The notes under the pieces: generated by a model
The model's database searches: none
Told to the model about the DNA's origin: nothing
The model's input: only the letters and a program-made list of their open reading frames with translations
Assembly (NCBI GenBank): GCA_965662915.1
Contig: CBFIJG010000001.1
Location: forward strand, 173,929 to 237,928
Origin: Planctomycetota bacterium
GTDB taxonomy: Bacteria; Planctomycetota; UBA1135; GCA-002686595
Length of the DNA: 64,000 nucleotides
Direction: 5' to 3'
Position numbers and translations under genes: made by a program
Part shown: positions 14,144 through 64,000 of the stretch, piece after piece
Layout of the letters: every line of letters begins with the position of its first letter
Numbering within the stretch: position 1 is the stretch's first letter

Positions 14144-14390
14144 CGGCGCCACCCTGGCGGACGCCGGGCACGCCGCTCCGGCTCGGTGAGCGCCGGCTCC
14201 CTGGGCGCACGAGAGTGGGCCTGGATCTCGAGGCCCCTCGGCTCCCTCGCTCAAGGGTGTGGGATCTCCCTTGGCACCGGCCTGAGCCGGGCCGATACTC
14301 CTCGGTCCCTTCGTCCGCCCGGGAGTGCGACACGCGCCTAGGAGCCCCGCTGGAGCACCTGGAAGCCGGGCTCAGCGAAGGGGGACCGCC

Positions 14391-17300: not shown

Positions 17301-17504
17301 CAGGCGGACACCGGGGGCGAGACCAAGGAGGAGGGCAGCGCCGCCGAATCCGAGGCGGTCCGGACGACGGCGGCTGCGCCTGAACGGGTCCATGCCCCCA
17401 AAGCCGCCGCAGCCGAGCTGGGTCCTGAGTTCCGGAACGTCGGTCGGAACGACACCTGCCCCTGCGGGAGCGGGAAGAAGTTCAAGAAGTGCCACGGCAA
17501 GTGA
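14391..17504 (+). CDS. secA: preprotein translocase ATPase SecA
   Basis: Track ORF 14325..17504. ATG 14391 is preceded by GAAGGGGGA. Motifs MMTGEGKTLMATL, DEVDSILIDEARTPLIISG and TNMAGRGTDIKLGG are present, with a C-terminal zinc motif CPCGSGKKFKKCHGK. Confidence 0.98.
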   Translation: MSWDDITDKFSSVGEGIGNFAKRLFGSENEREVRKLTPLIAEINGLETWAEGLDRETVQREVQAMRRQVQAGEESLDSVLTKMFALTREASKRTLGLRHYDVQLVGGYVLHSGKIAEMMTGEGKTLMATLALALNALSGRPCYLVTVNDYLARRDADWMRPIYEYLGLSVGAIQSSLDPSTRKPIYTSDIVYATNNELGFDYLRDNMKTTLDQQVQKDLYFAIVDEVDSILIDEARTPLIISGPAEDHVGRYAEADKVARQLTRDEHFEVKEKERIASLTEDGIVKAQEILGVESFYVPGFEDWPHYIENSLRAHSLYELDKEYVVEEAEDPRTGQLRKEVVIVDEFTGRKMAGRRWSDGLHQAVEVKEGLEPKQETQTLATITFQNYFRMFDKLAGMTGTAMTEAGEFHKIYELDVISVPTNRPIAREDHIDVVYRTLPEKWEAICDEIERVQESGQPVLVGTASVENSETLSKLLAERRLTHEVLNAKNHEREAHIVAMAGAKGAVTVSTNMAGRGTDIKLGGNFEYLLAQALSEAGLEAGDPEKLDEIDAIRTRVEAESSAAEEEILGLGGLYVLGTERHEARRIDNQLRGRTGRQGNVGASRFYLSLQDPLMRIFYRDWVVNAMERLGMSEGQPIESGMVTRQVARAQKKVEDRNFEIRKNLLEYDEVMDHQRTEIYSARQAVLEGEDLKDRVSIMIGNMVDRTSDAYDQDPGGFRDWVLRTFGVEVSEGAAAAATDAEEVDLGPVIDEIDRAYVGRREAWGPELTQRIESYLVLTAIDQKWKDHLHAMDALKAGIGLRGYGQQDPKIAYKKEATELFGQQLLPAIESDVASKVLRIEVNRPDEEQGAGDNLAPRGIAGSAGAPQPERKVRFDELSLEQQKTVVAQLPPEQKIMAVMQAGENEGELLLELDEELQEKYEDFKKQIETRRRQAQAEAAARQQMTRGTAASNAFDMMRRRQILEQRQRQADTGGETKEEGSAAESEAVRTTAAAPERVHAPKAAAAELGPEFRNVGRNDTCPCGSGKKFKKCHGK

Positions 17505-17538
17505 GCCGGTGGGGCCTTGCCTCGCGTGAGCCCTGCGG

Positions 17539-18936
17539 ATGACCGTCTCCAGTCGCCCTGAGGCCTCCGGCGCCGGGGAAGCACCTCCGCCGCCGATCAC
17601 GGCCTCCCCCTCGGTTGGCGTTGGTCAGTGGGTGCTTCAGCGCGTCTACGACATCGCGATCGGGGTCACCTGGGCCTGCATTTCCCCGCTCTTCCTGCTC
17701 GGGGGGCTGGTGCGTCCTCGCCTCGCTCGCAAAGCGCTCTCGCTCTCAACCGTGGGGCTGCCGGCGCTGGAGCCGTCCGATCCGAACCGGCCGCGGGTGC
17801 TCGTGCACGGAGTCTCGGTGGGTGAGATCAAGGCCGCGCAGTCGATCGTCGCGGCTCTGAAGGATCGCTACGAGGTGATCGTCAGCGCCTTCAGTGACAC
17901 GGGCCTGGAGGTCGCGGGGCAGCTCTTCTCGGGCGTCACCATCGTGCGGTACCCCTTCGACTTCCTGCCTCTCGTGCGCCGCTTCTGGTCGCGGATCCGG
18001 CCCGATCACGTCCTCCTGATGGAGCTCGAGGCCTGGCCCTGTTTCCTCCGCGAGGCGAATCGACGAGGCGCGCCGGTCGCGGTGGTGAGCGGAAGGATCA
18101 CGGAGGAGTCCTTCCGCCGCTATCAGATGTTCGGCTCGCTGCCCGAGTTCGGCAGGATCTCGCTCTTCGCCGCACAGGACGAGGTGTACGCAGAGCGCTT
18201 CCGTGCCCTCGCTGGCTCGGATGCAAGGGTCGTCGTGACGGGCAACGTGAAGATCGACGGGCTTCGTCCTCTCGAGGCCGGCGAGGAGGACCCGGCCCTG
18301 GAGGCGCTCCGCTGGACCGCAGGCCTGTCCGGGCTCGCTGAAGCTCCGCTGGTGATCGTCGCGGGCAGCACCCACGAGCCGGAGGAGACGCTCTTCCATG
18401 CTGCGTGCCTGGAAGCAGTCCCTCGCGCTCGCCTGGTGATCGTGCCGAGGCATCCCGAACGGGGCGCTGACGTGGCCTCGAACCTGGCCTGCTCGCTCCA
18501 GCCCGGAGCCGGTCCCGAGCTGCTGTCGCAGCTGCGTCGCGTCGGCGCGCAGGGCTCGATCGGCCGTCCGCTGATTGTCGACACGATCGGTGAGCTGGAA
18601 CGTCTCTACGGTCTGGCCGACCTCGTGTTCATCGGTGGGAGCCTGATCCCTCACGGCGGACAGAACATGATGGAGCCGGCCGCGCAGGGCCGTCCCGTGA
18701 TCTACGGTCCCCATGTCCAGAACTTCGCGGAGGAGACCGCGTTGCTGGAGCAGGCCGGCGCCGCCATCCGGGTCGAGGACAACCGCGTTCTGGCGGCCGA
18801 GCTCGCACGCCTGGCCCACGACGAGGGGGCGCGCCGCCGGATGGGACAGGCAGGGAGGGCAGCCCTCCTGGGGCAGCGGGGAGCGACGGGGGCGACTCTC
18901 GCGGCTCTCGCTGCGCGCTGTGGCCTTCACGCCTGA
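17539..18936 (+). CDS. waaA: 3-deoxy-D-manno-octulosonic acid (Kdo) transferase
   Basis: Contains VHGVSVGEIKAAQSIVAALK, GSTHEPEE and GGSLIPHGGQNMMEPAAQGRPVIYGPHVQNF, typical of WaaA/KdtA (GT30). Confidence 0.9.
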   Translation: MTVSSRPEASGAGEAPPPPITASPSVGVGQWVLQRVYDIAIGVTWACISPLFLLGGLVRPRLARKALSLSTVGLPALEPSDPNRPRVLVHGVSVGEIKAAQSIVAALKDRYEVIVSAFSDTGLEVAGQLFSGVTIVRYPFDFLPLVRRFWSRIRPDHVLLMELEAWPCFLREANRRGAPVAVVSGRITEESFRRYQMFGSLPEFGRISLFAAQDEVYAERFRALAGSDARVVVTGNVKIDGLRPLEAGEEDPALEALRWTAGLSGLAEAPLVIVAGSTHEPEETLFHAACLEAVPRARLVIVPRHPERGADVASNLACSLQPGAGPELLSQLRRVGAQGSIGRPLIVDTIGELERLYGLADLVFIGGSLIPHGGQNMMEPAAQGRPVIYGPHVQNFAEETALLEQAGAAIRVEDNRVLAAELARLAHDEGARRRMGQAGRAALLGQRGATGATLAALAARCGLHA

Positions 18937-39939: not shown

Positions 39940-42204
39940 TCACTCCCGGTACTCGGAGTCGTGGACGGAGGCCCGCGCCTGCTTCGTGCGAGAGACCGGG
40001 GATCGATGCTTCGTGGTCTCGAGGATCGTGCGGAGTCCCCGCCCCCGGGCTCCGCGACTCAGGTGCAACAAGGCGTCGATGTCGGGGGTCTCCAGGAGGA
40101 ACTCATGGATGCACTGCCTCACGGATTGCCCCGGCGCGCGTCGTTCGAGCGCGATGATGGCATCGCTGAGGAGCGCCACGTTGTCGAGGTTCACCGTTGA
40201 ATCGTCGTCCCCGGCGAATCCCACCGGATCCAGCCCGAGTTCCCGGATGCGTGCGGCGGCCCTTTCGGCTTCACGGCTGAGCTTGAAGTCAGCGGGGTCC
40301 GCGACGAGGAGCACGCGAGTCCCGGGGGTGAGTGCACGGAGCTCGTCCGCGACGGAACTGTGGAAGATCGACTGGGCGGGTGTGGTCTGCGCGCTGACTA
40401 CGGCAGCCTCAATGGAGTCCAGGCGCACCTGACGGGCACTCTCCTGGGAGCCGAGCCCGTTTCGCTCGCTACTCCGCGTGAACTCGATCATCCCGCCTGC
40501 GATCCCTCCGAAGATCGCGAGGACGAAGAGGGCCTTGATGAAGCCACGGCCGCGTTTGCGGCGCTGCGCCTTGGCGCGTTGACGCGCGTCGATTCTGGCC
40601 TGCCTGGCGTCCTCACGCGCCGCTCGAACGCGCTCACGTCGCGCCCGATGCTCGGCGCGGATCTCGCTCATCGACCGCTTCACGCGTCCCAGTCCCTTCA
40701 CCTCGGCAGAGAGACCGAAGGCGCTGAAGCGCGTGACATCCACATCCTCAGCGTCATGGGCAGTCCGCGACTCGCCCGTGCGCCTGGGTCCTGGCGCGTC
40801 TTCGTTCATGGACGGCAGGTCCACCGGCGCGACGGCGTCCGGGTCCTGTGCAGCGATGAGGACGTCGATGTCGCGCCCGAGCTCCTCGGCGGAGGCGTAT
40901 CGCTTGTCGATGTCCGCCATGGCGCGACGCACGATCCAGCGGAGCGCGCCTGGCGCCGGCTTGCTGATGGAGGACAGCGATCCGTGGGCCGGGAAACTGT
41001 TCTCGACCATCGCGTAGATGACCGCGCCGGCGCTGTACAGGTCGAACTTCACGCCATCGACGTCCTTCACACGACGTCCGGCGAGCGCGAGGCGTACGAG
41101 CTCGGGGTCGCGGAAGAACTCGGTCCCGTGGGTCGTGAGGGTCAGAGCGGACTCCAGAGGGGTGACGAGCCCGAAGTCCACGACCTGCAGGCGCTTGCCC
41201 GCGACCATGAGGTTGGACGGCTTGATGTCCTTGTGCCAGAGGCCCTCGTCGTGGAAGCGCTGCAGGTGGTCGCAGAGATCGCGGGCGTACCCGAGGACCG
41301 TCCGCAGCTGCTCGGCGTCCAGTCCGTCTCCGCGGCTCTGCGCGTGGAGTCCCCGCGTCGCGGTGTCGAGATCGTCACCCGGGACGAACGGCATCACGTA
41401 GTGGAACGCGTCCTCCTGGAGGGCGTGGTCGAGGACGAGGCCGAGGCGCTTCGCGGCGTCGAGGGAGCGGCTTTCCCGGACGATCTGGGGAATCGTGGAG
41501 CCGTAGCCCAGGTCGAACGCTTTGATCACGACCTTGGCGGGAGCCTGGATTCCCTTCTTCATCCACTCGGACGCCTTTTGGGGTGTGGGAGTGGCCGAGA
41601 AGAGGCGGGCGCCCGAGCCGCCGGCTCGCAGCTCATCGAGGAGGTCGTAACCCTCGAACCCGGGCATGTCGCCGCGACGAAGAGCGTCCCCGTTGGACGA
41701 GGAGATCGAACCGGAGCGGCGGCTGGAGAAGAGCCCGGTCCCCCGTCGACGCCGAGCGTCTCCGGTCATGGGCTCCTCTTCCAGGAGCTCCGGGAGTCTC
41801 CGCTCGAGCCCGTCGGTGAGTGCCCCGAGGCCCAGGAAGCGCACTGGATGCCCGATCCCTACGCGGTAGACGCAGGCGAGGGCGTTCATGAGCTCGTCCT
41901 CGACCGCCGCACCGTAATGGCTCGCCGCGGAGAATCTGAAGAGGGCGAGGTTCGCGATTGCGAGGGGAAGCACGAAGCTCGCCGTGAGCACGCTTCCGGC
42001 GAACTGGAGCGAGTCGACCACGACTCCCATCAAGAATCGGGCGACGTGACGAAGGATGCCACCGAACACCTGCAAGGTCCCGCCGATCGCGAAGCCCAGC
42101 ACCTTCAGGACCTGCAGGATCAGCCAGACCGCGACGACCGGGGCCATCGCGATGATGACGATCCCGATGCCGAAGGCGAGGAACCCGATCAGGGGCTGTA
42201 TCAT
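39940..42204 (-). CDS. membrane-embedded Ser/Thr protein kinase
   Basis: N-terminal polytopic region (about 4 TM helices). The Hanks kinase core has VVIKAF (Lys), HKDIKPSNLMV and VVDFGL. A basic linker, another TM helix (FIKALFVLAIFGGIAGGMIEF) and an unknown C-terminal domain of about 190 aa follow. Confidence 0.88.
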   Translation of the reverse strand: MIQPLIGFLAFGIGIVIIAMAPVVAVWLILQVLKVLGFAIGGTLQVFGGILRHVARFLMGVVVDSLQFAGSVLTASFVLPLAIANLALFRFSAASHYGAAVEDELMNALACVYRVGIGHPVRFLGLGALTDGLERRLPELLEEEPMTGDARRRRGTGLFSSRRSGSISSSNGDALRRGDMPGFEGYDLLDELRAGGSGARLFSATPTPQKASEWMKKGIQAPAKVVIKAFDLGYGSTIPQIVRESRSLDAAKRLGLVLDHALQEDAFHYVMPFVPGDDLDTATRGLHAQSRGDGLDAEQLRTVLGYARDLCDHLQRFHDEGLWHKDIKPSNLMVAGKRLQVVDFGLVTPLESALTLTTHGTEFFRDPELVRLALAGRRVKDVDGVKFDLYSAGAVIYAMVENSFPAHGSLSSISKPAPGALRWIVRRAMADIDKRYASAEELGRDIDVLIAAQDPDAVAPVDLPSMNEDAPGPRRTGESRTAHDAEDVDVTRFSAFGLSAEVKGLGRVKRSMSEIRAEHRARRERVRAAREDARQARIDARQRAKAQRRKRGRGFIKALFVLAIFGGIAGGMIEFTRSSERNGLGSQESARQVRLDSIEAAVVSAQTTPAQSIFHSSVADELRALTPGTRVLLVADPADFKLSREAERAAARIRELGLDPVGFAGDDDSTVNLDNVALLSDAIIALERRAPGQSVRQCIHEFLLETPDIDALLHLSRGARGRGLRTILETTKHRSPVSRTKQARASVHDSEYRE

Positions 42205-45077: not shown

Positions 45078-48000
45078 TCAGTTCTGCGCCCAGCTGAGCC
45101 CCAGAGCCGAGAGCTCCGGGAACTGCCCGGTGGCGATGTTGTTGATGAACGACACCCGAACCTGGATCCAGTCGCCCTCGACACCGGAGATCTCGCTCAG
45201 GAAGGGAGTCCACGCATCGGAGCCGTTGATGAAGCCGCCGGAGACGCTGGGGTTCTCGTTGTCGACGATGTAGTCGAAGGACCCATCGAAGCAGGATGCG
45301 CCGCCGATCACGGACACGCCGGGCTCCTCCTCCTGCGGTGTGAAGTTGATGGGCGTGGAGTCGTAGAAATCTCCGTAGGGGTCCTGACGGGACGCCCAGG
45401 TGGTTTCGCTGGCCTCGTTGGGGAAAGCGACCGCGCGCGAAACGCGGTACTCGAACTGCAGTTCGGTGCCTTGCGGCTGCACGGACGGGACCGTCAGCGG
45501 GGCGAGGTAGTTCGGGTTGCTGTAGGTGGCATCACCGGCCAGATCTTCCGGCGTCGTGTCCGGACCGAGGGAGCTGTTGAGGGCCGGGTAGAAGATCGAG
45601 TGCATCCGGCTCACCCGCGTGACGAGATCGAGCGCGCCGTAGTAGACGATGTTGTCCACGGGCGGAAGCGGCGCTCCAGGAGGCGTCGAGGTCGGATCGA
45701 AGCCGCCGCTGGCCACCGTCTCGGCGTCCGGGTTGACGATGAACTGCGTGCCGCCCTGGTTGGTTCCGCCGGAGGAGTAGGCGCGGAAACCGGGGAGGTT
45801 CGTGGTCACGGCCGGGTTGGAGCCCGGCTGGATGTGTGCCCAGGCGTGGCCGAACTGGTTCTGCGAGGACGTGCCGTTGGTGGGGTAGCACTTCACGTCC
45901 ACCATCAGCGGCAGCGCTGCGGTCCGCACCTCGCCGGTGTCGTACATCGGGTTCGGCGTGGACGGGACGTTGCAGTCGGGCGGGCCGCCCATGGGGTCCG
46001 GCGTGGGATCGAATCCCTGAAGCCCGGTGAGCTGCCCGTACCGTCCGACGGGAGCGCCAACGGCGGATGAGCCCGCGCGTGCGTCGACGCCCGTGCTGCG
46101 CCATGTGAAGGTGAGCCATTGCTCGACCGGGAGGCCGAGGTTCATCGCGAGCGGGAGGAGCACGGTGCCGTCCGCCGCGACGGTGCGGTCGCCCGGGTTG
46201 ATCGTGAAGCCCCGCTGTCGCGGGCTGACGAGCTTGGGCACGTCCTCCACGAGCGAGAGCTGGTTGCCGTCGTAGTTCGAGGTGAGCCCCGAGCCCGGAT
46301 CCGTCAGAGCCTGCTGGGGGTTGACCGCCTCGTTCGGCGTCCTGCTCGAGTGGGACATCGACACGGAGAACTCGGGGAACGACTCGAAGACCGGCGTCGA
46401 GCCCAGCGGATTGAGAAGGATCCGCTCGACGTCGAGGTCCAGGGTCGTCATGTCGACGCGGCTCCGGATGTCCCGGTTGGTGTACAGGGGAAGGTTCACG
46501 TCCAGATAGCGCCAGACGAACTGCACGCGCGCGCCGAGAGGGTTCAGCGGGAGGGAGGTCCCCGTGCCGTTGAACATCTGCGAGACCAGCGTGTTCTCAG
46601 TGTCCTGACTGACAACGACCTGGCTCCTCACGACCGAGCGCGGCCGAATGCGACCGCGGACGATGTCGTAGTCGACGTTGCCGAACCACTCGTTCCTCGG
46701 AAGGCCATCGAGGAACGTGCCGGCCGGATCGCCGAAGGGCCACTCCTCGTCCGGCGAGGAGAACCTGATCACTCGCCCGCCGGTGAGGCGGTCGGGCCTG
46801 TTCATGTCCAGCGTGAACTCGACCACGTCGGGAACCGCGACGACCGGGTTGCCGGCGAGGTCGCGGGGACCAAGATCTCCGCCCTGGAGCTGGAAGAAGT
46901 AGCTCTCCTCGTTCCCGAAGAGGTGTGCCAGGTCCTGGAACGGACGGAAGGTGAAGGTCTCCAGGCTGGCGTCGTTGGTGACCGTGCCGGGGACGTAGTC
47001 GGTCGGAAGGATCGTCGCTGAGCCCCCTGCTCCGCTGAGCCTGGGGTCCTTCCGGAGCAGGGTGATGCCCTCGTAAGCCTCGAGCAGGCCCGGGTCCACC
47101 GCCTCGTTGAAGCGCACGGAGAACTCCACGTCCGTCGAGAGGTTGACCGTGGGGTTGTCGGAGTCCGGGGCCCGGGGGGTGGTCTCCACGAAGCAGAACG
47201 CGAGCGCCGCGTCCTCCACCTCGTCGTAGGCGGTCCGGTACGCGATGGGGCCCTGTCCGGAGGCCTGGTACTGAGCGGGCCCGGTGAAGCCCTCGGGGGT
47301 CACGATGAGCTGGACTCGCAGGTTGTTGGCGATGCCGAGGCCGCTGAGGGCCGAGTCATCGAGGACTCGCGCGAAGAACGGCGCCTGCGCGATGAGGTCG
47401 CCCGCGCGGGGATCGATGTCGCAGATCGCGGTGGCGAACAGCACCTCGGGCAGGGTGAAGATCAGGTTCGCAGCGTCTTCGATCACCGGCGCTGCGGTGA
47501 TGACCGCGGCCCGGGAGCCGACCACGCGCGGCTCGGTGTCGTCGAAGAGGAATCCGTTCCCAGGGTCCCCGGTCACGTCGGTTCGTCCACCCGCGCGAAA
47601 CGCGCGCACGATCTCGCGAGTGGGCGAGCTGAAGTCGAAGCTTCCGTTCTGGGAGGTCGTCAGCGGGCTTTCGCTGAGGTTCTGGAGGACCGGCTGGATC
47701 TGACCGGTGATCCGCCGGGTCGGGAAGCGAACCTCGACGTTCGCCTCGTTCGAGTCCACGCTCCCGGGAAAGCCGAGCAGATTGACGCTGATGGGGGTGG
47801 AGGAGTTGAACGAGTCGAGCTCCGAGATCGCGGGGTCGATCACGAGGCGCGTCGAGTAGAACTGCGCGCCGGACCCTCCCGCGAAGGTGACTGCGTCCCC
47901 GTGGTTGGGGTCCAAGAACACCCGGGCCTCGAACGGCGTCACGGCGGGATCCCCGACCTGCACGCGAACGGAGGCAGCGTTGAGGGTGTCGGGGTCGATG

Positions 48001-48620
48001 AGGTCGTCGAGGATGACGACGAACGCGGCGTTGCGCGGGACCATCGTGTAGGTGCCGGCCTGACCGAACCCGTTGTCGGACACGACGCGAGTGCCGGCAT
48101 CGGCGGCGCGCAGGAGACGGATGTAGCGCTGACGACCCGTCTCGGGCTCGCCGAGATCGAGGGTCGTGTCGCTGTAATCCGCCTTGATGAAGAGGACCTG
48201 CTCGCCGGTGACCGGGTTGGTCTCGAGGGCGTAGCTGTTCTCGTCCCAGGCATCCTCCGGGCGAGGGTCGACGACGAAGTCCGTGTGGAGGGTCACGCGC
48301 CCGTCCGTCGCGTTGGGGCCAGCCTGCGCCTGGATGCGGACCAGCCGTCCGTAGTACTGCTGCGCGATGCGCATCGAGGACGCGAGCCCGCCGAAGTTCT
48401 CGTCGACGAAGAACGACGATCCGGAGCCCTCGACGTACGAGCCCACCGTGTTCGCCACCTTGTCGGCCGACTCGGTCGAATTGCACCCGGTGGCGGCCAG
48501 GATGGGCAGCGCTGCGGCGGCGACCAGCGCCGCGGCGGGTCGCTTGCACGCGATCCGGGCCGGGGAGTCGACGCGGCCGCTCTCGAGGAGAGGCCGGGGA
48601 CGGGAGTTCTTGACGCTCAT
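45078..48620 (-). CDS. very large lipoprotein (1180 aa), function unknown, Ig-like/beta-rich
   Basis: Track ORF 45078..48917 trimmed to ATG 48620 (MSVKNSRPRP...AAALVAAAALPILAATGC lipobox). The body is Gly/Asn/Thr/Pro-rich beta-type sequence. One segment (VNLSTDVEFSVRFNEAVDPGLLEAYEGITLL) resembles SbsA/Big_5-type Ig-like domains. No catalytic motif recognised. Confidence 0.8.
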   Translation of the reverse strand: MSVKNSRPRPLLESGRVDSPARIACKRPAAALVAAAALPILAATGCNSTESADKVANTVGSYVEGSGSSFFVDENFGGLASSMRIAQQYYGRLVRIQAQAGPNATDGRVTLHTDFVVDPRPEDAWDENSYALETNPVTGEQVLFIKADYSDTTLDLGEPETGRQRYIRLLRAADAGTRVVSDNGFGQAGTYTMVPRNAAFVVILDDLIDPDTLNAASVRVQVGDPAVTPFEARVFLDPNHGDAVTFAGGSGAQFYSTRLVIDPAISELDSFNSSTPISVNLLGFPGSVDSNEANVEVRFPTRRITGQIQPVLQNLSESPLTTSQNGSFDFSSPTREIVRAFRAGGRTDVTGDPGNGFLFDDTEPRVVGSRAAVITAAPVIEDAANLIFTLPEVLFATAICDIDPRAGDLIAQAPFFARVLDDSALSGLGIANNLRVQLIVTPEGFTGPAQYQASGQGPIAYRTAYDEVEDAALAFCFVETTPRAPDSDNPTVNLSTDVEFSVRFNEAVDPGLLEAYEGITLLRKDPRLSGAGGSATILPTDYVPGTVTNDASLETFTFRPFQDLAHLFGNEESYFFQLQGGDLGPRDLAGNPVVAVPDVVEFTLDMNRPDRLTGGRVIRFSSPDEEWPFGDPAGTFLDGLPRNEWFGNVDYDIVRGRIRPRSVVRSQVVVSQDTENTLVSQMFNGTGTSLPLNPLGARVQFVWRYLDVNLPLYTNRDIRSRVDMTTLDLDVERILLNPLGSTPVFESFPEFSVSMSHSSRTPNEAVNPQQALTDPGSGLTSNYDGNQLSLVEDVPKLVSPRQRGFTINPGDRTVAADGTVLLPLAMNLGLPVEQWLTFTWRSTGVDARAGSSAVGAPVGRYGQLTGLQGFDPTPDPMGGPPDCNVPSTPNPMYDTGEVRTAALPLMVDVKCYPTNGTSSQNQFGHAWAHIQPGSNPAVTTNLPGFRAYSSGGTNQGGTQFIVNPDAETVASGGFDPTSTPPGAPLPPVDNIVYYGALDLVTRVSRMHSIFYPALNSSLGPDTTPEDLAGDATYSNPNYLAPLTVPSVQPQGTELQFEYRVSRAVAFPNEASETTWASRQDPYGDFYDSTPINFTPQEEEPGVSVIGGASCFDGSFDYIVDNENPSVSGGFINGSDAWTPFLSEISGVEGDWIQVRVSFINNIATGQFPELSALGLSWAQN

Positions 48621-49000
48621 GAGTGTCGAAAGACTTTGGAGAGGGACCGGGCGGCCGACGGTGGCGGCGGGCCAGAGGCGATCCCGGGATGCCGCGGATG
48701 GTGCAAACGGTGTTCCACCGTGCCGCAGCTGGGGGGGCTGGAACTCGGCGATGTTAGGGGTCCGACGAGTCCAAGGCCGCGGGAGCGCTCCCGAGGCCTG
48801 TGCTGGGACCGCAAGGGTAGAAGGGCGCATGTTGTGAGGCAACGAATTGAGTCGCTCCCATGTCCCTCCTCGGGCGCGGTGAAGGGTGGCAAGGTTCGAT
48901 CGTGCGGTAGCGCACATTCAAGGACCGGCGGGCGGGCGATCTGTCCGAATGAACGGAGCCGCGGCGCGGCGGGACGGGCCCCTGCCATGACCCGGTGAGG

Positions 49001-50892: not shown

Positions 50893-53661
50893 TCAGTCGT
50901 CCAGGACGATGCTCCGAGCCCAGCTGAGCGTCTTCTGGAGGCCTGGTACCGCCATGAACTCCGGCTGCAAAGAGCGAGTCAGCGCCTCCTCCAGATAGGT
51001 GTTCGCCTTCCGGCCATGGACGGGGGAGGAGGTGTAGGCCACGGCCTTCACCGCCAGGAAGACGGGATGACGCTCATCGAACGACGGCCTCCTGCCCATC
51101 TCCTCGACGAGTGCGAAGACCTTCAGGCGGTCGCCCGCGCGCGCGAGCAGCTCGATCTGCGCGAGCTCGAGCGCCGGGTCGTTCGGGTCCACCGTGAGGG
51201 CGACGGCGACCGCGTCGCAACCCACGCGATAGTCGTCCTCACCGAGCCCATCCGCGATCCGAAGGGCCACGGCCCGCTCTCCGAGCTGCCGGGCGAGCTG
51301 GCGGCGGGCGCTCTCGGCGCCTCTGACGCTCGCCATCGAGGCGTGCAGATCGAGCAGGCGGGAAAGCTCCAGCGCCGCCTCTCCGCGCTCCTTGTGGCGC
51401 TCGGCGAGAGAGCGGAGGGCGTCGTGATACGGCCCGGTTTCCCGTTCGAAGATCTGACTCACGAGCTCGAACTCGCGGCTCATCGCATCGTCGAGGACGG
51501 CGCGCGGGACGCGCGCGCTGGAGGCGACCTCGTTGAAGGCTCGGACCGCGGCGTACTCCAGTTCTCGAGGCGCTCTGTCGATCATCGCCAGCCCGTCCAT
51601 CGCCCTCCGGAGCTCCAGCGCCGCCTCGCCGGTCTTGCCGATGCTCGCCAGCCAGCGTCCGCAGCGGATGTGCTCTCGCGGGAGGGCAGTGCTCTGCGGC
51701 GTCGAGAGGCGCTCGAGGACGCGGAACAGCTCGTTCCACGCTTCTCGAGCGAGTTCGTCCGCGCCCGCTCGGACGCGCACGTCGATCAGCATCTCGAGGA
51801 CGTCTGCACGCATGCGCCGATCGGTGGGCGCCAAAGCTCGGGCGATCTCATCGGCGGATGTGGCGAGCGCCTCCGCTCGCTGAAGGTCGCCTTCGTCCAA
51901 GGACAGAGCGGCTACCTCCAGGCGGGCCGGGTTGAGGAACGGGGTCCCCGGGGGAGAGAGTGCGCTGTCCAGATCGATGGCGGCGGTCAGCTGTTCCTCC
52001 GCAGCCGCGGGATCGCCGATGCGCGCGAGCTGCATGCCCAGGGCGCTACGAACGAACTTCACCTCAACCGAACGGGGCCCATGGACGCGCTCTGCGACCT
52101 CAAGCGCCCGCCGGCGTGCCTCGAGCGCGCCGTCGAGATCGCCCGACCGCGCGAGACGGGCCGCATGCGTCGAAAGGGCATCCACCACGAAGGGATGGTC
52201 CGCACCGAACGCATCCTCGGCCTGGCGCTGCACCTCATCGGCTGTCCGCCGGCCGGAGTCGACCCCCATGGCCTCGGTGAAGACCGCGGTGATCACGTCC
52301 GCCTGATCCTGCTTCGCTCGCTGCGCGTCGAATGCGACAACCAGACCGATCAGGAGCGCTGTCAGTGCCGCGCCGGCGGCGGCCGCCGCCACCCGGTGCC
52401 GGCGGAGGAACTTCCGGAAGCGATAAGTGGTGCTGGGGGGCCGCGCCTGAATGGGACGATCGGCGAGCGCGTGCTGGATGTCCCGCGCGAAGCTGGCCGC
52501 CGACTCGTACCTGCGATCACGTTCGTGCGCTAGGGCCTGAAGGGCGATGAAGTCGAGGTCGCCGCTGATCATGGCGCGCAGTTCGGATGCGGACCCTCCG
52601 CGACTCAGGGCGAGGCTCGAGAGGTCCGCTCGGGCCAAGAGTGCGGATGACGGGAGCGGCGGCTCGTGATGTGCGAGGAAGGACGCGAGGTCCCCGGCGA
52701 CGGCATGCTCCCGGAGCTCGTGGGCCTCGAGCGGCGGCCCGCCCGTGAGCAGTTCGTAGAAGATCACGCCGAGCGAGTAGACGTCCGACCTCGTGTCGAT
52801 GTCCCCTTGCCCGAGGGCCTGCTCCGGACTCATGTACACCGGGGTCCCGATGACCTGGCCCAGCTCCGTGCGTAGCGGCTCCCCGGGATCGCGGTCGTCG
52901 GCGGTGGCCTTCGCGATGCCGAAGTCGATGACCTTCGGCAGCGCGCGGCTCTCGCCCTCCGCGACGAGGACGTTCGATGGTTTCAGGTCGCGGTGGATGA
53001 TCCCGCGCTGATGGGCGTGCTGCACGGCACCGCAGAGCTCCAGGAAGAGCTCGCATCGGCCTCGAATGCTCAGAGCCTTGCCGTCGCAATAGCTGGTGAG
53101 GTCGATGCCCGGGACGAGATCCATCACGAAGTAGGGCCGCCCCCCCTCGGTCTGTCCGGCGTCGAGCACGCGCGCGATGGATGGATGATCCAGACGCGCG
53201 AGCGCCTGGCGCTCCGCCTCGAACCGCGCGATCACCTGCCGGGTGTCCATTCCGAGCTTGATCACCTTGAAGGCGACCTCTCGACGAACGGGCTCGCTCT
53301 GCTTTGCGCGGTAGACCACGCCGAAGCCTCCCTCGCCGAGGCGCTCCACGAGGCGGTAGGGACCGACGCTGGAGCCGACATCCACGTCCAGTGGTGCCGT
53401 GTCGTGTGCCTCCGCCCGGAACTCGATGGGGAGCAGCGGGCCACGCTCGAGGAAGTCGCTGGAGGACGCATGCGCCTCGAGAAGATCACGCACCTGCTGG
53501 AGGAGCAGATCGTCGTTACCGGTCGCTGCGCGAAGCCATGCATCTCGCCTGGAGCCTTCGGGCCGCGCAAGAGCGCCGTGGAAGAGCGCCTCCACGGCGC
53601 GCAGCGGCGGCGCCCCGTCTTCGTGACGTGACGCGGGTCTCGTCCCCGAGTCGGAGCTCAT
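50893..53661 (-). CDS. Ser/Thr protein kinase with a TM helix and C-terminal TPR-like repeats
   Basis: Contains GEGGFGVVYRA, AFKVIK, HRDLKPSNVLV, DFGIAKA and SPEQ. A TM helix (VAAAAAGAALTALLIGLVVAF) follows, then about 480 aa of TPR/helical repeats. The ATG overlaps the sigma stop (ATGA). Confidence 0.93.
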   Translation of the reverse strand: MSSDSGTRPASRHEDGAPPLRAVEALFHGALARPEGSRRDAWLRAATGNDDLLLQQVRDLLEAHASSSDFLERGPLLPIEFRAEAHDTAPLDVDVGSSVGPYRLVERLGEGGFGVVYRAKQSEPVRREVAFKVIKLGMDTRQVIARFEAERQALARLDHPSIARVLDAGQTEGGRPYFVMDLVPGIDLTSYCDGKALSIRGRCELFLELCGAVQHAHQRGIIHRDLKPSNVLVAEGESRALPKVIDFGIAKATADDRDPGEPLRTELGQVIGTPVYMSPEQALGQGDIDTRSDVYSLGVIFYELLTGGPPLEAHELREHAVAGDLASFLAHHEPPLPSSALLARADLSSLALSRGGSASELRAMISGDLDFIALQALAHERDRRYESAASFARDIQHALADRPIQARPPSTTYRFRKFLRRHRVAAAAAGAALTALLIGLVVAFDAQRAKQDQADVITAVFTEAMGVDSGRRTADEVQRQAEDAFGADHPFVVDALSTHAARLARSGDLDGALEARRRALEVAERVHGPRSVEVKFVRSALGMQLARIGDPAAAEEQLTAAIDLDSALSPPGTPFLNPARLEVAALSLDEGDLQRAEALATSADEIARALAPTDRRMRADVLEMLIDVRVRAGADELAREAWNELFRVLERLSTPQSTALPREHIRCGRWLASIGKTGEAALELRRAMDGLAMIDRAPRELEYAAVRAFNEVASSARVPRAVLDDAMSREFELVSQIFERETGPYHDALRSLAERHKERGEAALELSRLLDLHASMASVRGAESARRQLARQLGERAVALRIADGLGEDDYRVGCDAVAVALTVDPNDPALELAQIELLARAGDRLKVFALVEEMGRRPSFDERHPVFLAVKAVAYTSSPVHGRKANTYLEEALTRSLQPEFMAVPGLQKTLSWARSIVLDD

Positions 53662-59160: not shown

Positions 59161-59934
59161 TCAGGTCTGCTGGACGCGGGTGACGCCCAGCAGGCGCTCG
59201 ATCGATTTCATGCGTTTGCCGAGGAAGGGTACGTGTTCGATCCGTGCCACGACCTGGTTCTCCCGCTTGATGACGATCGTGCCTCCGCCGAACGTGAGGA
59301 TCAGCTCGAGGACGTCGGGCACTTCACGGCTCACCGTGCTCCCCAGGCGGGGGATGCTCTGGTCTCGGCCCCAGGGCTGGATGTAGTGAACGAACTCGTT
59401 CGGCTCCAATCTCCAGTAGTTGAACCTGGGAGTCGCCATACCCAGCGCGAAGAAGAGCGCGAGGAAGAAGCCGACGAGGAAGTAAGTGTGCGTGCTGTAG
59501 TAGAGCTCGAGCCCGGAGATCCAGTGCCCGACGCTTCCGATCACGCCCCAGCCCTGGAGCTTGCCCACGTACAGCCCGAGTCCGCCGAGGAGCAGGAGGA
59601 GGATGAAGATCGCGAACTTCTTCTGGTCGAGGTCCGTGACGATGATCATCAGGTTGAACGCGAGTGAGCCAGTCGCCCACCAGCCTAGGGTGGAGCCGAG
59701 GAAGTTCCCGTCGTCACCGAAGGGTCCACCGCTGATGAGCTGGACCACGCCGCACACGAGGAAGGCGATCAGCGAGGGCCAGAAGTAGATGATCATCGGG
59801 AACGAGGCCACCGGCACGGCGTCCTTGTCCTGATCAGCATTGAAGGGGTAGTAGACCTCCCAGACGGACTCCTTCCTGGGGGGCTTGGAGGCGCTGGGCT
59901 GGCTCGTGTCCGGGCCGGTCGGGGTTTCGGTCAT
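59161..59934 (-). CDS. hypothetical polytopic membrane protein with a C-terminal PH-like soluble domain
   Basis: About 5 hydrophobic helices (FPMIIYFWPSLIAFLVCGVV, LGWWATGSLAFNLMIIV, FAIFILLLLLGGLGLYV, and others). The C-terminal stretch of about 70 aa (RLEPNEFVHYIQPWGRDQ...GGGTIVIKRENQVVARIEHV) is reminiscent of bacterial PH (YdbS/T-like) domains. The stop lies 27 nt upstream of the M18 gene start, on the same strand. Confidence 0.7.
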   Translation of the reverse strand: MTETPTGPDTSQPSASKPPRKESVWEVYYPFNADQDKDAVPVASFPMIIYFWPSLIAFLVCGVVQLISGGPFGDDGNFLGSTLGWWATGSLAFNLMIIVTDLDQKKFAIFILLLLLGGLGLYVGKLQGWGVIGSVGHWISGLELYYSTHTYFLVGFFLALFFALGMATPRFNYWRLEPNEFVHYIQPWGRDQSIPRLGSTVSREVPDVLELILTFGGGTIVIKRENQVVARIEHVPFLGKRMKSIERLLGVTRVQQT

Positions 59935-60072
59935 GGCGTCTGCGTGGTGCGAGCGGATGTGAGCGGTGCGGGCGTCTGGGGGGCCCTCACCTTGGCACGT
60001 GGTGGGATCCTAGCAGCGCCCTACGCTGGAGCGAGGGACCCATTCGATGCCGATCGGGCGCCTCATGACGGC

Positions 60073-63000
60073 GTGCCGCCGTGGCCATCGTCGAAGGAAA
60101 CCGTTGAATGGGAAGCTCACCGGGCCTCGGAGACGGAAGATCTGCTGGCCGTGGTCCAGCCCCATCCCGAAGACCCAGCCCTGCAGCAGGCGCGCGCGTC
60201 CCTCGAGGCGGCCACCTCGGAGCTGCATGACGACCTGGCCCAGCTGGAGAGGACGCGCCAGGATCTCGGCGGAAGGGAGGCCGCAGCGCGTCTCTGCGAG
60301 CTCGACCGGCGCCTTCTCGCGGCCGAGTGTGAGGCGGCGAAGTTCTTGAGGCGGCCGAGGGAGCACCCGGTGCTTCCCGTCGCGCGCGGGTGGATGGAGC
60401 GCCTCCGGGCCACCGGACTGCCCGAGGACGCGCGACGAGCAGAGGCACTGACCTCGGACCTCGAGTGCCGTTCCTTGCGTCAGCGTCTTCGGCGCTGCGA
60501 GGAGGCGCGTGACCGGAGCGCCCTGGAGGCATCGGACGTGCAAACTGATCAGCTCCGGGACCGGCTCTTCGATGCCCTCCTCGCGACCGAGGAGCTGCGC
60601 CTCGGGGTCAAGGGGAGGGCCGAGCGGATCGGGCCGGCAGGCGGCGTGGACACCCGCAGTGTCCTGGAGGAAGCTCGGCGAGTGAGGGCACAACTCCGAA
60701 AGGAGCTCGCTCAGGCCCTCACAATCGCCCCGGCCGATGCCCCCCGGCGAGACGAATGGGCCGGTCGTCTCGTCGATCATGGGGACGAAGCGCTGGTCGC
60801 GGCTCTCGAGGTCGAAGAACGAGTCGGCGCACGAATCCTCGGTGAAGCGCGTGACGCCCTCGAATGGCATTTGAAACACGTGGAGTCCGCTCGCGACGGT
60901 GGCTCACGTGGTCCGGGGCGGCGATTGCGGCGCCGGGTCAGGCGCCTCGAGGCCGAGCGGTTGGAGCTCGAGCTTCAGGTCCGCCTGGAGAGGACCTTCA
61001 GTCGACGGCTGGTGATCCTCTGGGAGCGCGCGGTCCTTCTGGCGATCGTGTTCGTGATCGGGCTTCTCGTCGCATCGATCTGGTACGGCGGGTCGCGCTG
61101 GCTGCTCTGGGCCGACACGGCCGTCTGCGCCTTCCTCGTCGTCGACTTCCTCGTGAAGGCGTTCCGCATCGACTTCGATCGGCATTGGATGAGGCGCCAT
61201 GTGCTGACGGACCTCCTGCCTGCGATTCCCTTCGGCCTGATCGTCATCAACGCCGGCTCCGCGGAGCTCTCTCCGCTGCTCAAGGCGCTACGGATCCAGA
61301 AGGTCGCCCGGTCCCTGCGGGTTCTTCTTCCGATCATCCGTCTCTACCGGGCGTCCACCTTCGTCCTCCGTGGACTCGATCGGATCGTCCGACAGAACGC
61401 TCGTTTCCTGATGAAGGAGACTCTGGTCTTCCCGACGCCTGCCGAGCGGAGGCAGGCGCGCGCGGGGACCAGGATCTTGGAAACCCGGATCTGGTCGGCT
61501 CGGAACGCGCTGGAAACGCTCTTCGCGCGATCCCTGGAAGCCAGGGGCGCCAGCGAACGAGCCGCGCTCGCCTCGGCGCGGCTTGCTTGCTTCCAATGCG
61601 CGGTCACCGCGAAGGTTCCCACCACCGATTCGGGTCAGGACCTCGACGCGGTCAGGCGAGCCGGGCTCCCCATCGCAGAGGACCTGCTCGATCGGCTCTC
61701 CAGGATAAGTAGCGATGAGGTCGAGGGTCGACTGGGCCCGGACGCCCTCGCGCGACTCGCGCGGGGAGCACGTGTCGTCGCCCGATCACCGCTCAGACGG
61801 CTTCCGTTCCTGCGCCGCTGGGTGCCCGTGGATGCTGGCGACCTGTCGGACCGGCGAGTCGCCGCTCGGGTCATCAGGAGCGTGGCTCGATCCGCAGCGA
61901 CCTTGGAGAACAGGGTCCTCTGGTGGGCCGATCTGAAGGGGACGCTGACGCCGGGCGAGCTGGTCGGCAGAGTGGGATCCACGCTCGTTGCGAGATCGGC
62001 CCGGCCGGCTGTGAGGCTGCTCGCGATCGGCGGCGCCTATCTCCTGCTGCGGCTCATGCTGCATGGCCTGGGCTACGATCCGGACGACGCCGTGATGCTC
62101 GCCGAGGGCTACCCGTCTTCAGAGCTGGAGGGTGCCCAGGAGTTGGGCGGCCCGGCGAGCGAGAGAGCCTCGAGGGATCTCGGCGGCTTGCGAGGATTCG
62201 TGCTCGAGGTCTTCGCCATCGTCAATCGGCTGACCGGTGTGGTCCTGGTCGTTCTCGGCTCCGTGTGCCTGGCCTTTCTCGGGGTCGGTGCATGGCTCCA
62301 GCGGCTTGCGAGGGACACCACCGTCTTTCACGAGCAGGTCGCGCGCGCTCAGTTCCTGCACCTGACCGAGAGCATCAAGGCGCGGGAGAAGAAGAGGGAC
62401 GCTGAGCTGCTCGAAGAGCGGGTCTTCCGCCCGGAGCGGGCTCTGCGCGGGGCGTCATGGGCCAACACGGTATCGGACCGCGACGAGGCGCGCTTCCTGA
62501 GCGGACTGGAGAGGTTCATGACTGCAGGTGTCTCCCCGCCGTCGCAGGGCGTCGGGTTCGACGCGGTGGCGCGATCGGTGATGCTCTACCGCGATCTTCT
62601 CGATGGTGCGCTTCTCGTGCATTCGGACACTCGCGCGACCAGTCAGCTCCTGGGGAACCTCGCGCTCCAGCGAATGATGAGTCACGCAGGGCGCGTGGAC
62701 GCCGGGATGCGACAGGCGCTTCGGGGCCTCGACCTCGAACGCAGGCGCACCTTCCTGAGCGGGCCGTACCTGTGGTTCCACTCGATCACCCGCGCTCTCG
62801 CGAGCCGTTCGGCCCGCCTGATCGTGGACTACAACGCGCACGCTATTCCGCGGTCCGAGCTGAAACGCGCCGCGCCGGAGGAGTGCCGTCGATACGAGGC
62901 CTGGCTGGCAAGGGAGTCGTACGGGGTCGACCGCGACGGCCAGGAGGAGTCCGTGCGCGAGAGCGCCCGTGGCCGAGCGGCTCAGCTCACGACGGCCTTC

Positions 63001-64000
63001 ACCGCGCTCCACTTCCTCGACAGATCCGAGGCCAGGGACGAGGAGGTGGCGACGCGGTTCGGTCCTGAGGTCCTCTCCAGGCTCCGAGCAGACCGAAAGG
63101 CTCTGGTGAGAAGCGTCTTCGGGACGTCCCCACTCCACGAACAGCCTCTGGAGTCCCGGATCCTCAATCTTCGGCTGCTGTACGCGGACTGGATCGAGGG
63201 GGGCAAGGTCTGGCTGGCGCCGCTCCGCCTCACCGCGGTCGGCGTCCGGGCCAGCGCGCTCGCGGCTCGAGCCCTCGCGCGAGCCGTGGCCACGATTCGT
63301 CGCCCTGAGGCCGCACTGTCGACCGGGGCTGAGGCCGAGGCCGATTTCCACGCGGCGGCGCGGAAAATCGATCGCATGCGCGGGCCCGGGGCCCTCGTGG
63401 CCTTGGAGCTTCGCGCCATCCTCGACCCCGAGTACTTCGGCCTCCCCCTTCCCGGTGTCGAGCTGGAGAGGGATGCCGGGAGCGCGGCGCCGAAGGCATG
63501 GGCCGACGCCGACTTCCTCCGGGCGACCCCTGCCGTGCGTGACCGCCTCGCGACTCACCGTGCACGGTCGGCGCGCTGCCTCGCGCAACTCGAGCGTGAA
63601 TGCGCAGCCGGGCTACTCGACAGGCTCTCCTCGGCGCTCGGCGTCTCGATCCACAGGGACCAGGAGACCCTCCGCGCGCTCGCGCTGATCATGGTTGCAG
63701 ACGACGACGGGGTCCGATCGGGGCTCTTCGGGCCAGAGGTACTCGCCGGAGTGACCTGCGATGCGCTGACCTTCGGCCTGCCTCATCGGCGACCCCTCTT
63801 GGCGCTCCGACTGCGGGTGCGCTTCGAACGGTGGTGGCGTCGCGGTGGGGGGCGGGAGCACCTGACAAGCGCCGCGGTGCTGGCCGGAGCGCTGCCCGCG
63901 TCCACGAACGGCGGGGATGAGGGGAGCGTCAGGAAGGACGGCTCTCTCGAGCGGGCACGCTGGCGCCGGGTGAAGCGCGCCGCGTGGTGCGCGCTGCTCG
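60073..64000 (+). CDS. giant protein (>1,300 aa, 3' end beyond window) with coiled-coil N-terminus and voltage-sensor-like S1-S4 domain
   Basis: - Plus-strand frame 3n+1 has no stop from about 59.9 kb to nt 64000. It has no stop inside the window, which probably explains its absence from the track.
- G/C predominates strongly at third codon positions (by eye).
- The start is provisional: GTG 60073, with in-frame alternatives at GTG 59944/59947/59959 and TTG 59992.
- Four helices at about nt 61000-61400 read LVILWERAVLLAIVFVIGLLVASIW, WADTAVCAFLVVDFLVKAF, LTDLLPAIPFGLIVI and LLKALRIQKVARSLRVLLPIIRLYR. The last is S4-like, with K/R at every third residue. Confidence 0.8.
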   Translation, partial: MPPWPSSKETVEWEAHRASETEDLLAVVQPHPEDPALQQARASLEAATSELHDDLAQLERTRQDLGGREAAARLCELDRRLLAAECEAAKFLRRPREHPVLPVARGWMERLRATGLPEDARRAEALTSDLECRSLRQRLRRCEEARDRSALEASDVQTDQLRDRLFDALLATEELRLGVKGRAERIGPAGGVDTRSVLEEARRVRAQLRKELAQALTIAPADAPRRDEWAGRLVDHGDEALVAALEVEERVGARILGEARDALEWHLKHVESARDGGSRGPGRRLRRRVRRLEAERLELELQVRLERTFSRRLVILWERAVLLAIVFVIGLLVASIWYGGSRWLLWADTAVCAFLVVDFLVKAFRIDFDRHWMRRHVLTDLLPAIPFGLIVINAGSAELSPLLKALRIQKVARSLRVLLPIIRLYRASTFVLRGLDRIVRQNARFLMKETLVFPTPAERRQARAGTRILETRIWSARNALETLFARSLEARGASERAALASARLACFQCAVTAKVPTTDSGQDLDAVRRAGLPIAEDLLDRLSRISSDEVEGRLGPDALARLARGARVVARSPLRRLPFLRRWVPVDAGDLSDRRVAARVIRSVARSAATLENRVLWWADLKGTLTPGELVGRVGSTLVARSARPAVRLLAIGGAYLLLRLMLHGLGYDPDDAVMLAEGYPSSELEGAQELGGPASERASRDLGGLRGFVLEVFAIVNRLTGVVLVVLGSVCLAFLGVGAWLQRLARDTTVFHEQVARAQFLHLTESIKAREKKRDAELLEERVFRPERALRGASWANTVSDRDEARFLSGLERFMTAGVSPPSQGVGFDAVARSVMLYRDLLDGALLVHSDTRATSQLLGNLALQRMMSHAGRVDAGMRQALRGLDLERRRTFLSGPYLWFHSITRALASRSARLIVDYNAHAIPRSELKRAAPEECRRYEAWLARESYGVDRDGQEESVRESARGRAAQLTTAFTALHFLDRSEARDEEVATRFGPEVLSRLRADRKALVRSVFGTSPLHEQPLESRILNLRLLYADWIEGGKVWLAPLRLTAVGVRASALAARALARAVATIRRPEAALSTGAEAEADFHAAARKIDRMRGPGALVALELRAILDPEYFGLPLPGVELERDAGSAAPKAWADADFLRATPAVRDRLATHRARSARCLAQLERECAAGLLDRLSSALGVSIHRDQETLRALALIMVADDDGVRSGLFGPEVLAGVTCDALTFGLPHRRPLLALRLRVRFERWWRRGGGREHLTSAAVLAGALPASTNGGDEGSVRKDGSLERARWRRVKRAAWCALL

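Follow-up and report, generated by a model that had tools for sequence, protein, structure and literature searches.

A giant gene at the end of the window

The window analysed here is a 64,000-nucleotide (nt) stretch of contig CBFIJG010000001.1, from the Planctomycetota assembly GCA_965662915.1, and its last four kilobases are occupied by a plus-strand gene for a giant membrane protein with a predicted S1-S4 voltage-sensor domain (Table 1). The gene is read in the frame whose codons start at 3n+1; the nearest stop upstream of it is at 59,686, and from there the frame is open to nt 64,000. Translation of window positions 59800-64000 gives 1,400 codons without a stop. A preliminary description, made from the bare sequence, had reported the frame as free of stops from about 59.9 kb and had suspected the list of open reading frames (ORFs) of dropping frames that lack a stop inside the window. 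Both points hold, the frame being absent from the list because it runs off the window end. The product was also expected to exceed 1,300 residues, with its C-terminus outside the window, and this agrees with the metagenomic protein P0001 from a 36.9-kb TARA Oceans contig, which is 100% identical to the window translation. P0001 is 1438 residues long, and therefore 91 C-terminal residues lie past the window end.

The gene call starts at GTG 59959, 24 nt from the divergently oriented neighbouring gene. Because the first 80-100 residues from this codon are unconserved, GTG 60073 or GTG 60151 is at least as likely to be the start, and the true start is uncertain, lying anywhere from 59,959 to ~60,150.

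Two minus-strand ORFs, 60010-60879 and 62455-63588, are both present inside the region that encodes this protein, which is conserved down to 25-30% identity. They had been described at the outset as overlapping a plus frame whose third codon positions are mostly G or C, and the first of them as having the pattern of a shadow ORF. The GC content at third codon positions (GC3) of the plus frame is indeed 0.82-0.87 across 60.9-63.9 kb, but at 60.0-60.9 kb composition is indecisive: the GC content at first positions of the plus frame is ~0.8 there, so that it cannot separate this frame from the minus-strand ORF 60010-60879. We therefore turn to substitutions relative to two orthologous loci (65% and 43% identity), which are in excess at the third position of the plus-frame codons in every segment from about residue 100 onwards, with 45/34/76 substitutions at positions 1/2/3 for residues 201-340 and 59/49/161 for residues 801-1100. 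Because substitutions pile up at the third position of the plus frame, the coding strand of 60.0-60.9 kb is settled as plus. A Pfam scan of the two minus-strand ORFs gave no significant family match. Judged by substitutions and homologues together, both ORFs are shadows and the plus strand codes, as first proposed.

Table 1. Features of the giant gene and its predicted product, in window coordinates
Feature	Residues	Nucleotides	Strand	Basis and marks
Gene for giant voltage-sensor protein		59959..64000, ~275 nt further beyond window	+	Open frame; identical protein P0001; position-3 substitutions
N-terminal cytoplasmic region	1-345	59959..60993	+	Rich in Arg, Ala, Leu, Glu; low column conservation, 0.06-0.34
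S1	349-376	61003..61086	+	Hydropathy peak 2.65; modelled helix
S2	380-403	61096..61167	+	Outer acid D386, plug 393, inner acid D396, K400
S3	408-431	61180..61251	+	R413, D418, P421, P424
S4	438-465	61270..61353	+	K442, R445, K448, R451, R454 at every third position; then P458, R461, R464
Conserved helix continuing S4 into the cytoplasm	466-480	61354..61398	+	Motif F468-x2-R471-G472-x-D474-R475
Cytoplasmic helical linker domain	481-650	61399..61908	+	Modelled all-helical
Membrane-adjacent conserved segment	651-682	61909..62004	+	Consensus W-x-A-D658-L-x-G661-T-x-T ... D-R671-x-G673 ... R682
TM5	683-705	62005..62073	+	Hydropathy; inside modelled helix of residues 665-703; G691 conserved
Acidic periplasmic loop, ~45-50 residues	706-756	62074..62226	+	10 Asp/Glu vs 3 Lys/Arg; pLDDT <50
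TM6	757-782	62227..62304	+	Hydropathy peak 2.56; modelled helix of residues 744-799; G767, C770, G777, W779
Cytoplasmic all-helical C-terminal domain	783-1438 (783-1347 in window)	62305..64000	+	High-confidence helical model; conservation
TM, transmembrane helix; pLDDT, predicted local distance difference test.

The protein belongs to a large planctomycete family

Word-indexed searches returned ~30 relatives, all of them nameless, annotated as 'hypothetical' or labelled 'ion transporter, partial'. An exhaustive profile search against 1.84 billion cluster representatives brought in many more: the matches number 1,429 at E≤1e-3, of which 631 reach E≤1e-10 and 368 reach E≤1e-30. All of the top 150 score above 730 bits. 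About 130 of them, with lengths of 1,140-1,540 residues, align without interruption to profile positions 1 to ~1,040; the others are shorter or truncated, or align in several pieces. When one genome per species was scanned, relatives turned up in 164, almost all of them from Planctomycetota. Hosts with complete genome sequences include Saltatorellus ferox Poly30 (52% identity), Planctomycetales bacterium 10988 and Candidatus Uabimicrobium amorphum, and further members occur in metagenome-assembled genomes (MAGs) of Pirellulales, Gemmatales and Phycisphaeraceae; the nearest genome is the MAG 'Plancto10', at 72% identity. A few family members (loci L012, L059, L064 and L073) come from contigs of MAGs with the labels Paracoccaceae, Ectothiorhodospiraceae or Myxococcales, and these may reflect binning errors or contamination, or else rare horizontal transfer.

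All conservation counts given below refer to 142 diverse relatives, most of them 25-45% identical to the window protein. As far as these alignments go, the architecture of the family is fixed, with an N-terminal region of median length 325 residues, a linker of 204-252 residues between S4 and TM5, and a C-terminal region of median length 628 residues.

S1 to S4 form a voltage-sensor domain

Four hydrophobic helices had been placed at about nt 61000-61400, and they are recovered at nt 61,003-61,353; the hydropathy peaks and the charges of the loops agree with four helices S1-S4 and, by the positive-inside rule, with a cytoplasmic N-terminus. The preliminary description had taken these helices for a voltage sensor of the Ion_trans kind, and it is at the level of the family that this reading finds its support. 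The window protein alone scores 12 bits against Pfam Ion_trans (PF00520; cut-off 25), and its alignment covers profile positions 4-107 of 241, that is, S1-S4 only. The same profile is matched by 10 of 14 relatives (best E 1.6e-4), and three more family members carry a precomputed PF00520 match; some members are named 'ion transporter'. When a 19-sequence profile of residues 345-500 was compared with the sequences in PDB, 109 were matched at E≤1 (best E 1.3e-4), and all 60 of those listed are voltage-gated channels or isolated sensors, among them Kv4.2, KvAP, Kv3.1, HCN1, bacterial and insect Nav, EAG, hERG and Kv1.2.

The residues that define a charge-transfer centre align with those of the known sensors. 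In the alignment to KvAP, D386, D396 and K400 fall on Asp, Asp and Arg of S2, D418 falls on Glu of S3, and the S4 arginines fall on R1-R4, the identities of the KvAP residues being taken by us from established knowledge. Within S2, the spacing of the outer acid, the plug seven residues on, the inner acid three further and the base another four further is that of Shaker and NavAb. An acidic residue occupies position 386 as well as position 396 in 142 of 142 relatives, position 400 is Lys or Arg in 140, and position 418 of S3 is acidic in 131, so that both acids named earlier for the second and third helix (D396 and D418) are confirmed; all four charged positions of S2 and S3 are present together in 129 of the 142. 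The plug position 393 is Phe in 96 relatives and Leu in 45; the window protein has Leu there, with F392 adjoining. S3 also contains an invariant proline (P424). In S1, the sole conserved acidic residue is E356 (Asp or Glu in 136 of 142), which lies at the cytoplasmic end of the helix. Two relatives (P0026 and P0027; locus L008 7001-11602) have ~90 extra residues between S1 and S2, many of them charged or alanine, and the external S1-S2 loop is therefore variable in the family.

S4 carries the run of five consecutive basic residues, spaced by three, that had first drawn attention to it. Across the family, the periodic positions are seven (439, 442, 445, 448, 451, 454 and 457), each of them Lys or Arg in 94-124 of the 142 relatives; at least four of the seven charges are present in 125 relatives and all seven in 46. 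The proline P458 is nearly invariant. On this sequence evidence, the sensor has a full charge-transfer centre and five to seven gating charges.

Structure prediction points in the same direction. An AlphaFold model of residues 345-500 has a pLDDT of 78 and a predicted TM-score (pTM) of 0.65, and four helices appear in both AlphaFold models. Its best Foldseek matches in PDB are the isolated KvAP sensor structures 2kyh (probability 0.99) and 1ors_C (probability 0.99, TM-score 0.59/0.68, root-mean-square deviation 4.0 Å), followed by HCN1 (probability 0.91) and then by the sensors of KCNQ1, KCNQ2 and, among the weak matches, SLC9C1 (8otw). Taken together, profile, fold and residue conservation argue that S1-S4 is a bona fide voltage-sensor domain, homologous to the sensors of voltage-gated cation channels. 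Purifying selection on the exact gating-charge and counter-charge residues would be difficult to account for in a domain that did not sense voltage.

S4 leads into a long cytoplasmic linker and a hydrophobic hairpin

In both AlphaFold models S4 and the motif that follows it form one unbroken helix (residues 446/447-479). F468, R471 and D474 each reach an identity of 85% or more within the family, and the motif is among the best conserved of the protein. The preliminary description had counted ~230 soluble residues after S4, and the interval from S4 to TM5 (residues 466-682) indeed measures ~217 residues here and 204-252 in all 142 relatives. Just before TM5, D658 is invariant, G661, R671, G673 and R682 are at least 85% conserved, and P683 and R686 are conserved as well; position 670 is Gly in the window protein and Asp in most relatives. 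By the positive-inside rule, the N-terminus, the S4-TM5 linker and the C-terminus are all placed in the cytoplasm.

Two further helices around an acidic loop of ~45 residues had been expected at about nt 62010-62320, and TM5 and TM6 are found at nt 62,005-62,304. Most relatives lack the acidic loop between them, which marks it as an insertion of this clade: across the family the median length of the TM5-TM6 segment is 14 residues, compared with 56 here, which leaves few residues between the helices in most members. No conserved motif was found in this loop across the family. With a loop of a few residues in most relatives, the family as a whole cannot share a re-entrant pore helix and selectivity filter, and the earlier statement that no pore is recognisable thus gains in strength. 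The membrane cores of TM5 and TM6 consist of Leu, Val and Phe and have no conserved polar or charged residue, their sole polar position, 698, being variable. The pattern, with its glycine-type packing motifs, looks more like helix packing than like the lining of a pore. The architecture of P-loop channels, S5-P-loop-S6 joined to the sensor by a short S4-S5 linker, is not found, in keeping with a Pfam alignment that ends at position 107 of 241, and a profile of the linker plus TM5-TM6 had no credible match among PDB sequences. As judged from these sequence features, the protein has no P-loop pore.

Large cytoplasmic regions flank the membrane domain

An N-terminal extension of ~325 residues is present in all relatives. 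Its composition and coiled-coil-like character agree with the ~300-residue Glu/Arg/Leu-rich start reported earlier, residues 260-345 are modelled by AlphaFold as long helices, and the region is probably a coiled coil or oligomerisation region.

At the other end, more than 550 residues of Arg/Ala/Leu-rich helical sequence had been noted, and the complete C-terminal part, which is indeed rich in these residues, proves to comprise ~650 residues. We found no match for it, or for the linker, in Pfam, NCBIfam, PADLOC or PDB sequence-profile searches, in keeping with the lack of any motif in the first description; scans of the window protein and 14 relatives against Pfam and NCBIfam detected no phosphatase or C2 family. 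A calcium uniporter match (E 0.07 over 24 residues) was judged spurious. Within the family, the C-terminal domain carries many invariant or near-invariant polar residues (among them D882-G883, N900, G935-P936, Y958-N959, R1135-K1136, R1139, R1152, D1156 and Y1159) and a series of short motifs such as LYRD-x-LDGA, QLLGN, GPYLWF, (D/E)YN, RFG, DRR, RKI-x-RMR-x-P and LRA-x-x-D-x-EY-x-G. Such invariant polar motifs are less typical of a simple scaffold than of a domain with a catalytic or ligand-binding role, and the invariant Arg, Lys, Asp, Asn and Tyr suggest a putative site for anionic-ligand binding or catalysis.

An AlphaFold model of residues 260-1438 (1,179 residues) is wholly helical, with a pLDDT of 79.8 and a pTM of 0.79, the latter value suggesting a single packed assembly. 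A Foldseek search of PDB with the whole model returned ABC-transporter-like helical noise only (best E 0.27, TM-score ~0.07); as such a search is dominated by long-helix noise, it is a weak negative and uninformative on individual domains. A search for the C-terminal domain outside this architecture yielded nothing but family members and fragments, and it never occurred without the sensor.

Genomic neighbourhood

The giant gene is monocistronic. As described before, it is divergent from the genes for a membrane protein and an M18 aminopeptidase (E 1.5e-126), and it is convergent with a DUF748-like gene. The membrane protein (59161-59934, minus strand) is polytopic and 257 residues long; its best match in Pfam, NCBIfam and PADLOC is a weak one to DUF454 (E 0.047). 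The arrangement is retained in relatives down to 43% identity and absent at distant loci. Clustering of the flanking ORFs at 80 loci revealed no neighbour common to more than 12 of them, and those 12 all come from one Saltatorellus-like clade, so that the neighbourhood is conserved within this clade and not across the family. The 257-residue membrane protein, the aminopeptidase and the DUF748 gene, syntenic in at most 12 of 80 loci, were therefore rejected as operon partners. As there is no family-wide gene neighbour, the controlled effector most likely lies within the same polypeptide.

Some further observations concern genes near family members. At locus L006 (9209-9991, plus strand), a same-strand gene 3' of the relative P0029 encodes a 260-residue protein with a cyclic-nucleotide-binding domain; it is the one occurrence of its kind and probably a coincidence. 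The window holds Ser/Thr protein kinase genes at 39940-42204 and 50893-53661 (both on the minus strand), one of which encodes a Pkinase plus TPR protein, as seen on an identical contig, with a gene for an extracytoplasmic function (ECF) sigma factor adjoining. Distant family members at loci L004 and L008 likewise have kinase genes nearby, which may be no more than chance.

Other features of the window

A second large ORF (45078-48917, minus strand; 1,279 residues) is probably coding, to judge from its GC3 of 0.88, and has no Pfam match at E≤1e-5. In its N-terminal region, a Cys comes directly after a hydrophobic stretch (AAALPILAATGC), an arrangement reminiscent of a lipoprotein signal. A 1,159-residue ORF at 14121-17600 (minus strand) lies wholly opposite secA (14325-17504, plus strand), in whose product Pfam recognises each of the five SecA domains, at E-values as low as 7e-121; the first-position GC of the minus-strand ORF is 0.88. 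It is a textbook shadow ORF and shows what lengths shadow frames reach in a genome of 70% GC. Scans of the window for tRNAs and against Rfam found no RNA gene.

A proposed membrane-potential sensor and its alternatives

We propose that the protein, a stand-alone inner-membrane protein with six transmembrane helices, senses membrane potential and is coupled to an effector in the cytoplasm, and give this reading, which draws on sequence conservation and structural models, a probability of roughly one half. The more specific proposition, that a true sensor controls a cytoplasmic effector of new fold instead of a pore, which would make the protein the founding member of its family and the first prokaryotic voltage-sensor-coupled non-channel signalling protein, we hold at slightly under even odds. 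In outline, a change in membrane potential would move S4, and this motion would enter the unbroken, conserved cytoplasmic helix that continues it (F468/R471/G472/D474). That helix, the likewise conserved segments flanking the start of TM5 and the end of TM6, and the TM5-TM6 hairpin itself would then relay the motion to the cytoplasmic domains, namely the ~215-residue linker and the ~630-residue C-terminal domain, and alter their conformation, activity or partner binding. The coiled-coil-like N-terminal region probably mediates oligomerisation. The most conserved blocks of the protein adjoin the membrane (S4, its cytoplasmic continuation and the membrane-adjacent segments).

Several points weigh against this proposal. 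The window protein taken alone falls under the Pfam Ion_trans threshold, the sensor's Foldseek matches have weak E-values (0.13-0.66) despite good probabilities and TM-scores, and the whole-protein AlphaFold model has a pLDDT of 52-67 at the S3-S4 loop and the outer half of S4. The proposed contacts between S4, TM5-TM6 and the cytoplasmic domains are drawn from conservation, not from model coordinates. 'Effector' is a placeholder label for cytoplasmic domains without a recognisable fold or motif (best PDB profile match at E 0.07, whole-model Foldseek at E 0.27), and the protein may still form an oligomeric pore without a P-loop.

This last possibility is also the best surviving alternative, although we consider it distinctly less probable than an effector-coupled sensor. 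The protein would then be a voltage-gated channel or transporter in which TM5-TM6 hairpins of an oligomer, assembled perhaps via the N-terminal coiled coil, line a P-loop-free pathway like those of CorA, MCU, Orai or TMEM175, with the sensor gating the pathway and the cytoplasmic domains regulating it. Its six helices with both termini inside are the topology of voltage-gated channels, TM5 and TM6 are conserved (G691, G767, C770, G777 and W779) and are long helices reaching into the cytoplasm, and some members bear the automatic label 'ion transporter'. Against these stand the few-residue TM5-TM6 loop of most relatives, in which a re-entrant loop is impossible, and membrane cores of Leu, Val and Phe in which no polar or charged residue is conserved and the one polar position, 698, varies. 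The ~215 residues that separate S4 from TM5 are likewise at odds with a short S4-S5 linker, the Pfam alignment ends with S4, and no sequence or fold match to any pore domain was obtained. The split and highly divergent P-loop channel that the preliminary description had offered as its own alternative is weakened by the short family loop in the same way.

An improbable but still arguable view is that the sensor fold serves as a static anchor or as a lipid or ligand module, as in the S1-S4 domain of TRP channels, the protein being a membrane-associated scaffold. Some 1,000 of its 1,438 residues are helical cytoplasmic sequence without an enzymatic signature, and Planctomycetota are known for an elaborate membrane architecture in which such a scaffold might have a place. 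Non-sensing S1-S4 domains, however, have lost their periodic arginines, whereas here five to seven of them, together with the S2 acids, the plug and the S3 Asp, are under strong purifying selection at 25-30% identity, and S4, its continuation and the membrane-adjacent segments are the very parts that are conserved most.

Least plausible among the functional alternatives, and to our mind a slim chance, is that the sensor itself conducts, with a proton or ion path through S1-S4 as in Hv1 and the rest of the protein being regulatory. Hv1 is likewise a sensor without a pore domain, but the gapless S4 arginine ladder and conserved hydrophobic plug of the family are the pattern of a non-conducting sensor, and its S1 has no mid-membrane Asp, the sole conserved acid, E356, lying at the cytoplasmic end. 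That a full ladder with a plug marks non-conducting sensors is known from work on gating-pore currents (reviewed in PMC10651576).

Finally, the notion that high-GC DNA has left this frame open by chance or as a shadow, and that the minus-strand ORFs are the genuine genes, for which the ambiguous codon-position composition at 60.0-60.9 kb might speak, is refuted by the position-3 substitution excess along the gene, by the 1,429 representative proteins that match the plus-strand product (~130 of the best 150 from end to end of the profile) and by the minus-strand ORFs' lack of a significant family match.

Comparison with known voltage-sensor proteins

The sensors of voltage-gated cation channels such as KvAP, Kv4.2, HCN1 and bacterial Nav have the same S1-S4 arrangement, with an inside N-terminus, S2 and S3 acids and an S4 ladder. 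Unlike these channels, the giant protein has no S4-S5 linker, S5, P-loop or S6, and it has a nearly invariant proline (P458) within S4, which is followed instead by ~215 cytoplasmic residues, a hydrophobic hairpin and a ~630-residue cytoplasmic domain. The voltage-sensing phosphatases (Ci-VSP, TPTE) are similar in that a pore-free sensor is linked through S4 to a cytoplasmic domain, with a proposed logic that runs from voltage to activity. They differ in being eukaryotic and in combining four transmembrane helices with a PTEN-like phosphatase and a C2 domain, whereas the giant protein has six helices and neither domain was detected in it. By analogy, we infer that it could be a bacterial counterpart of the voltage-sensing phosphatases in logic.

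The sperm Na+/H+ exchanger SLC9C1 likewise couples a sensor to a non-P-loop part within one large multidomain polypeptide. Its sensor stands after a 13-helix transporter domain and before a cyclic-nucleotide-binding domain (PMC13095418), and the giant protein contains neither of the two. Hv1 and TMEM266 share with it a sensor without a pore domain and cytoplasmic helices of coiled-coil type, but they are small four-helix proteins, and in Hv1 an Asp sits mid-membrane in S1 and the arginine ladder is shortened; the giant protein has the full ladder, two extra transmembrane helices and ~1,000 more residues. The non-channel voltage-sensor proteins listed in reviews (voltage-sensing phosphatases, SLC9C1, Hv1 and TMEM266) are all eukaryotic (PMC13095418; PMC10651576), and a 2024 review of voltage sensors includes no bacterial example coupled to something other than a P-loop pore (PMC13095418). 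Our literature search found no description of this family or of a bacterial non-channel voltage-sensor protein, its coverage being incomplete and hence weak evidence of absence. The sensor belongs to a known superfamily, and it is the bacterial non-P-loop architecture that appears to be new.

Significance

Bacterial membrane-potential signalling is an active field in which, to our knowledge, no dedicated sensors have been identified. If the proposed role is true, this family would give bacteria a direct molecular route to read their own membrane potential, and with an arginine ladder that is unusually long and well conserved it is a concrete and testable candidate. Each protein also holds ~850 residues in cytoplasmic domains without known relatives. 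The family, at present nameless or mislabelled 'ion transporter', merits a domain-database model of its own. Either outcome, a new type of effector or a new kind of pore, would widen the roles in which voltage sensors are found.

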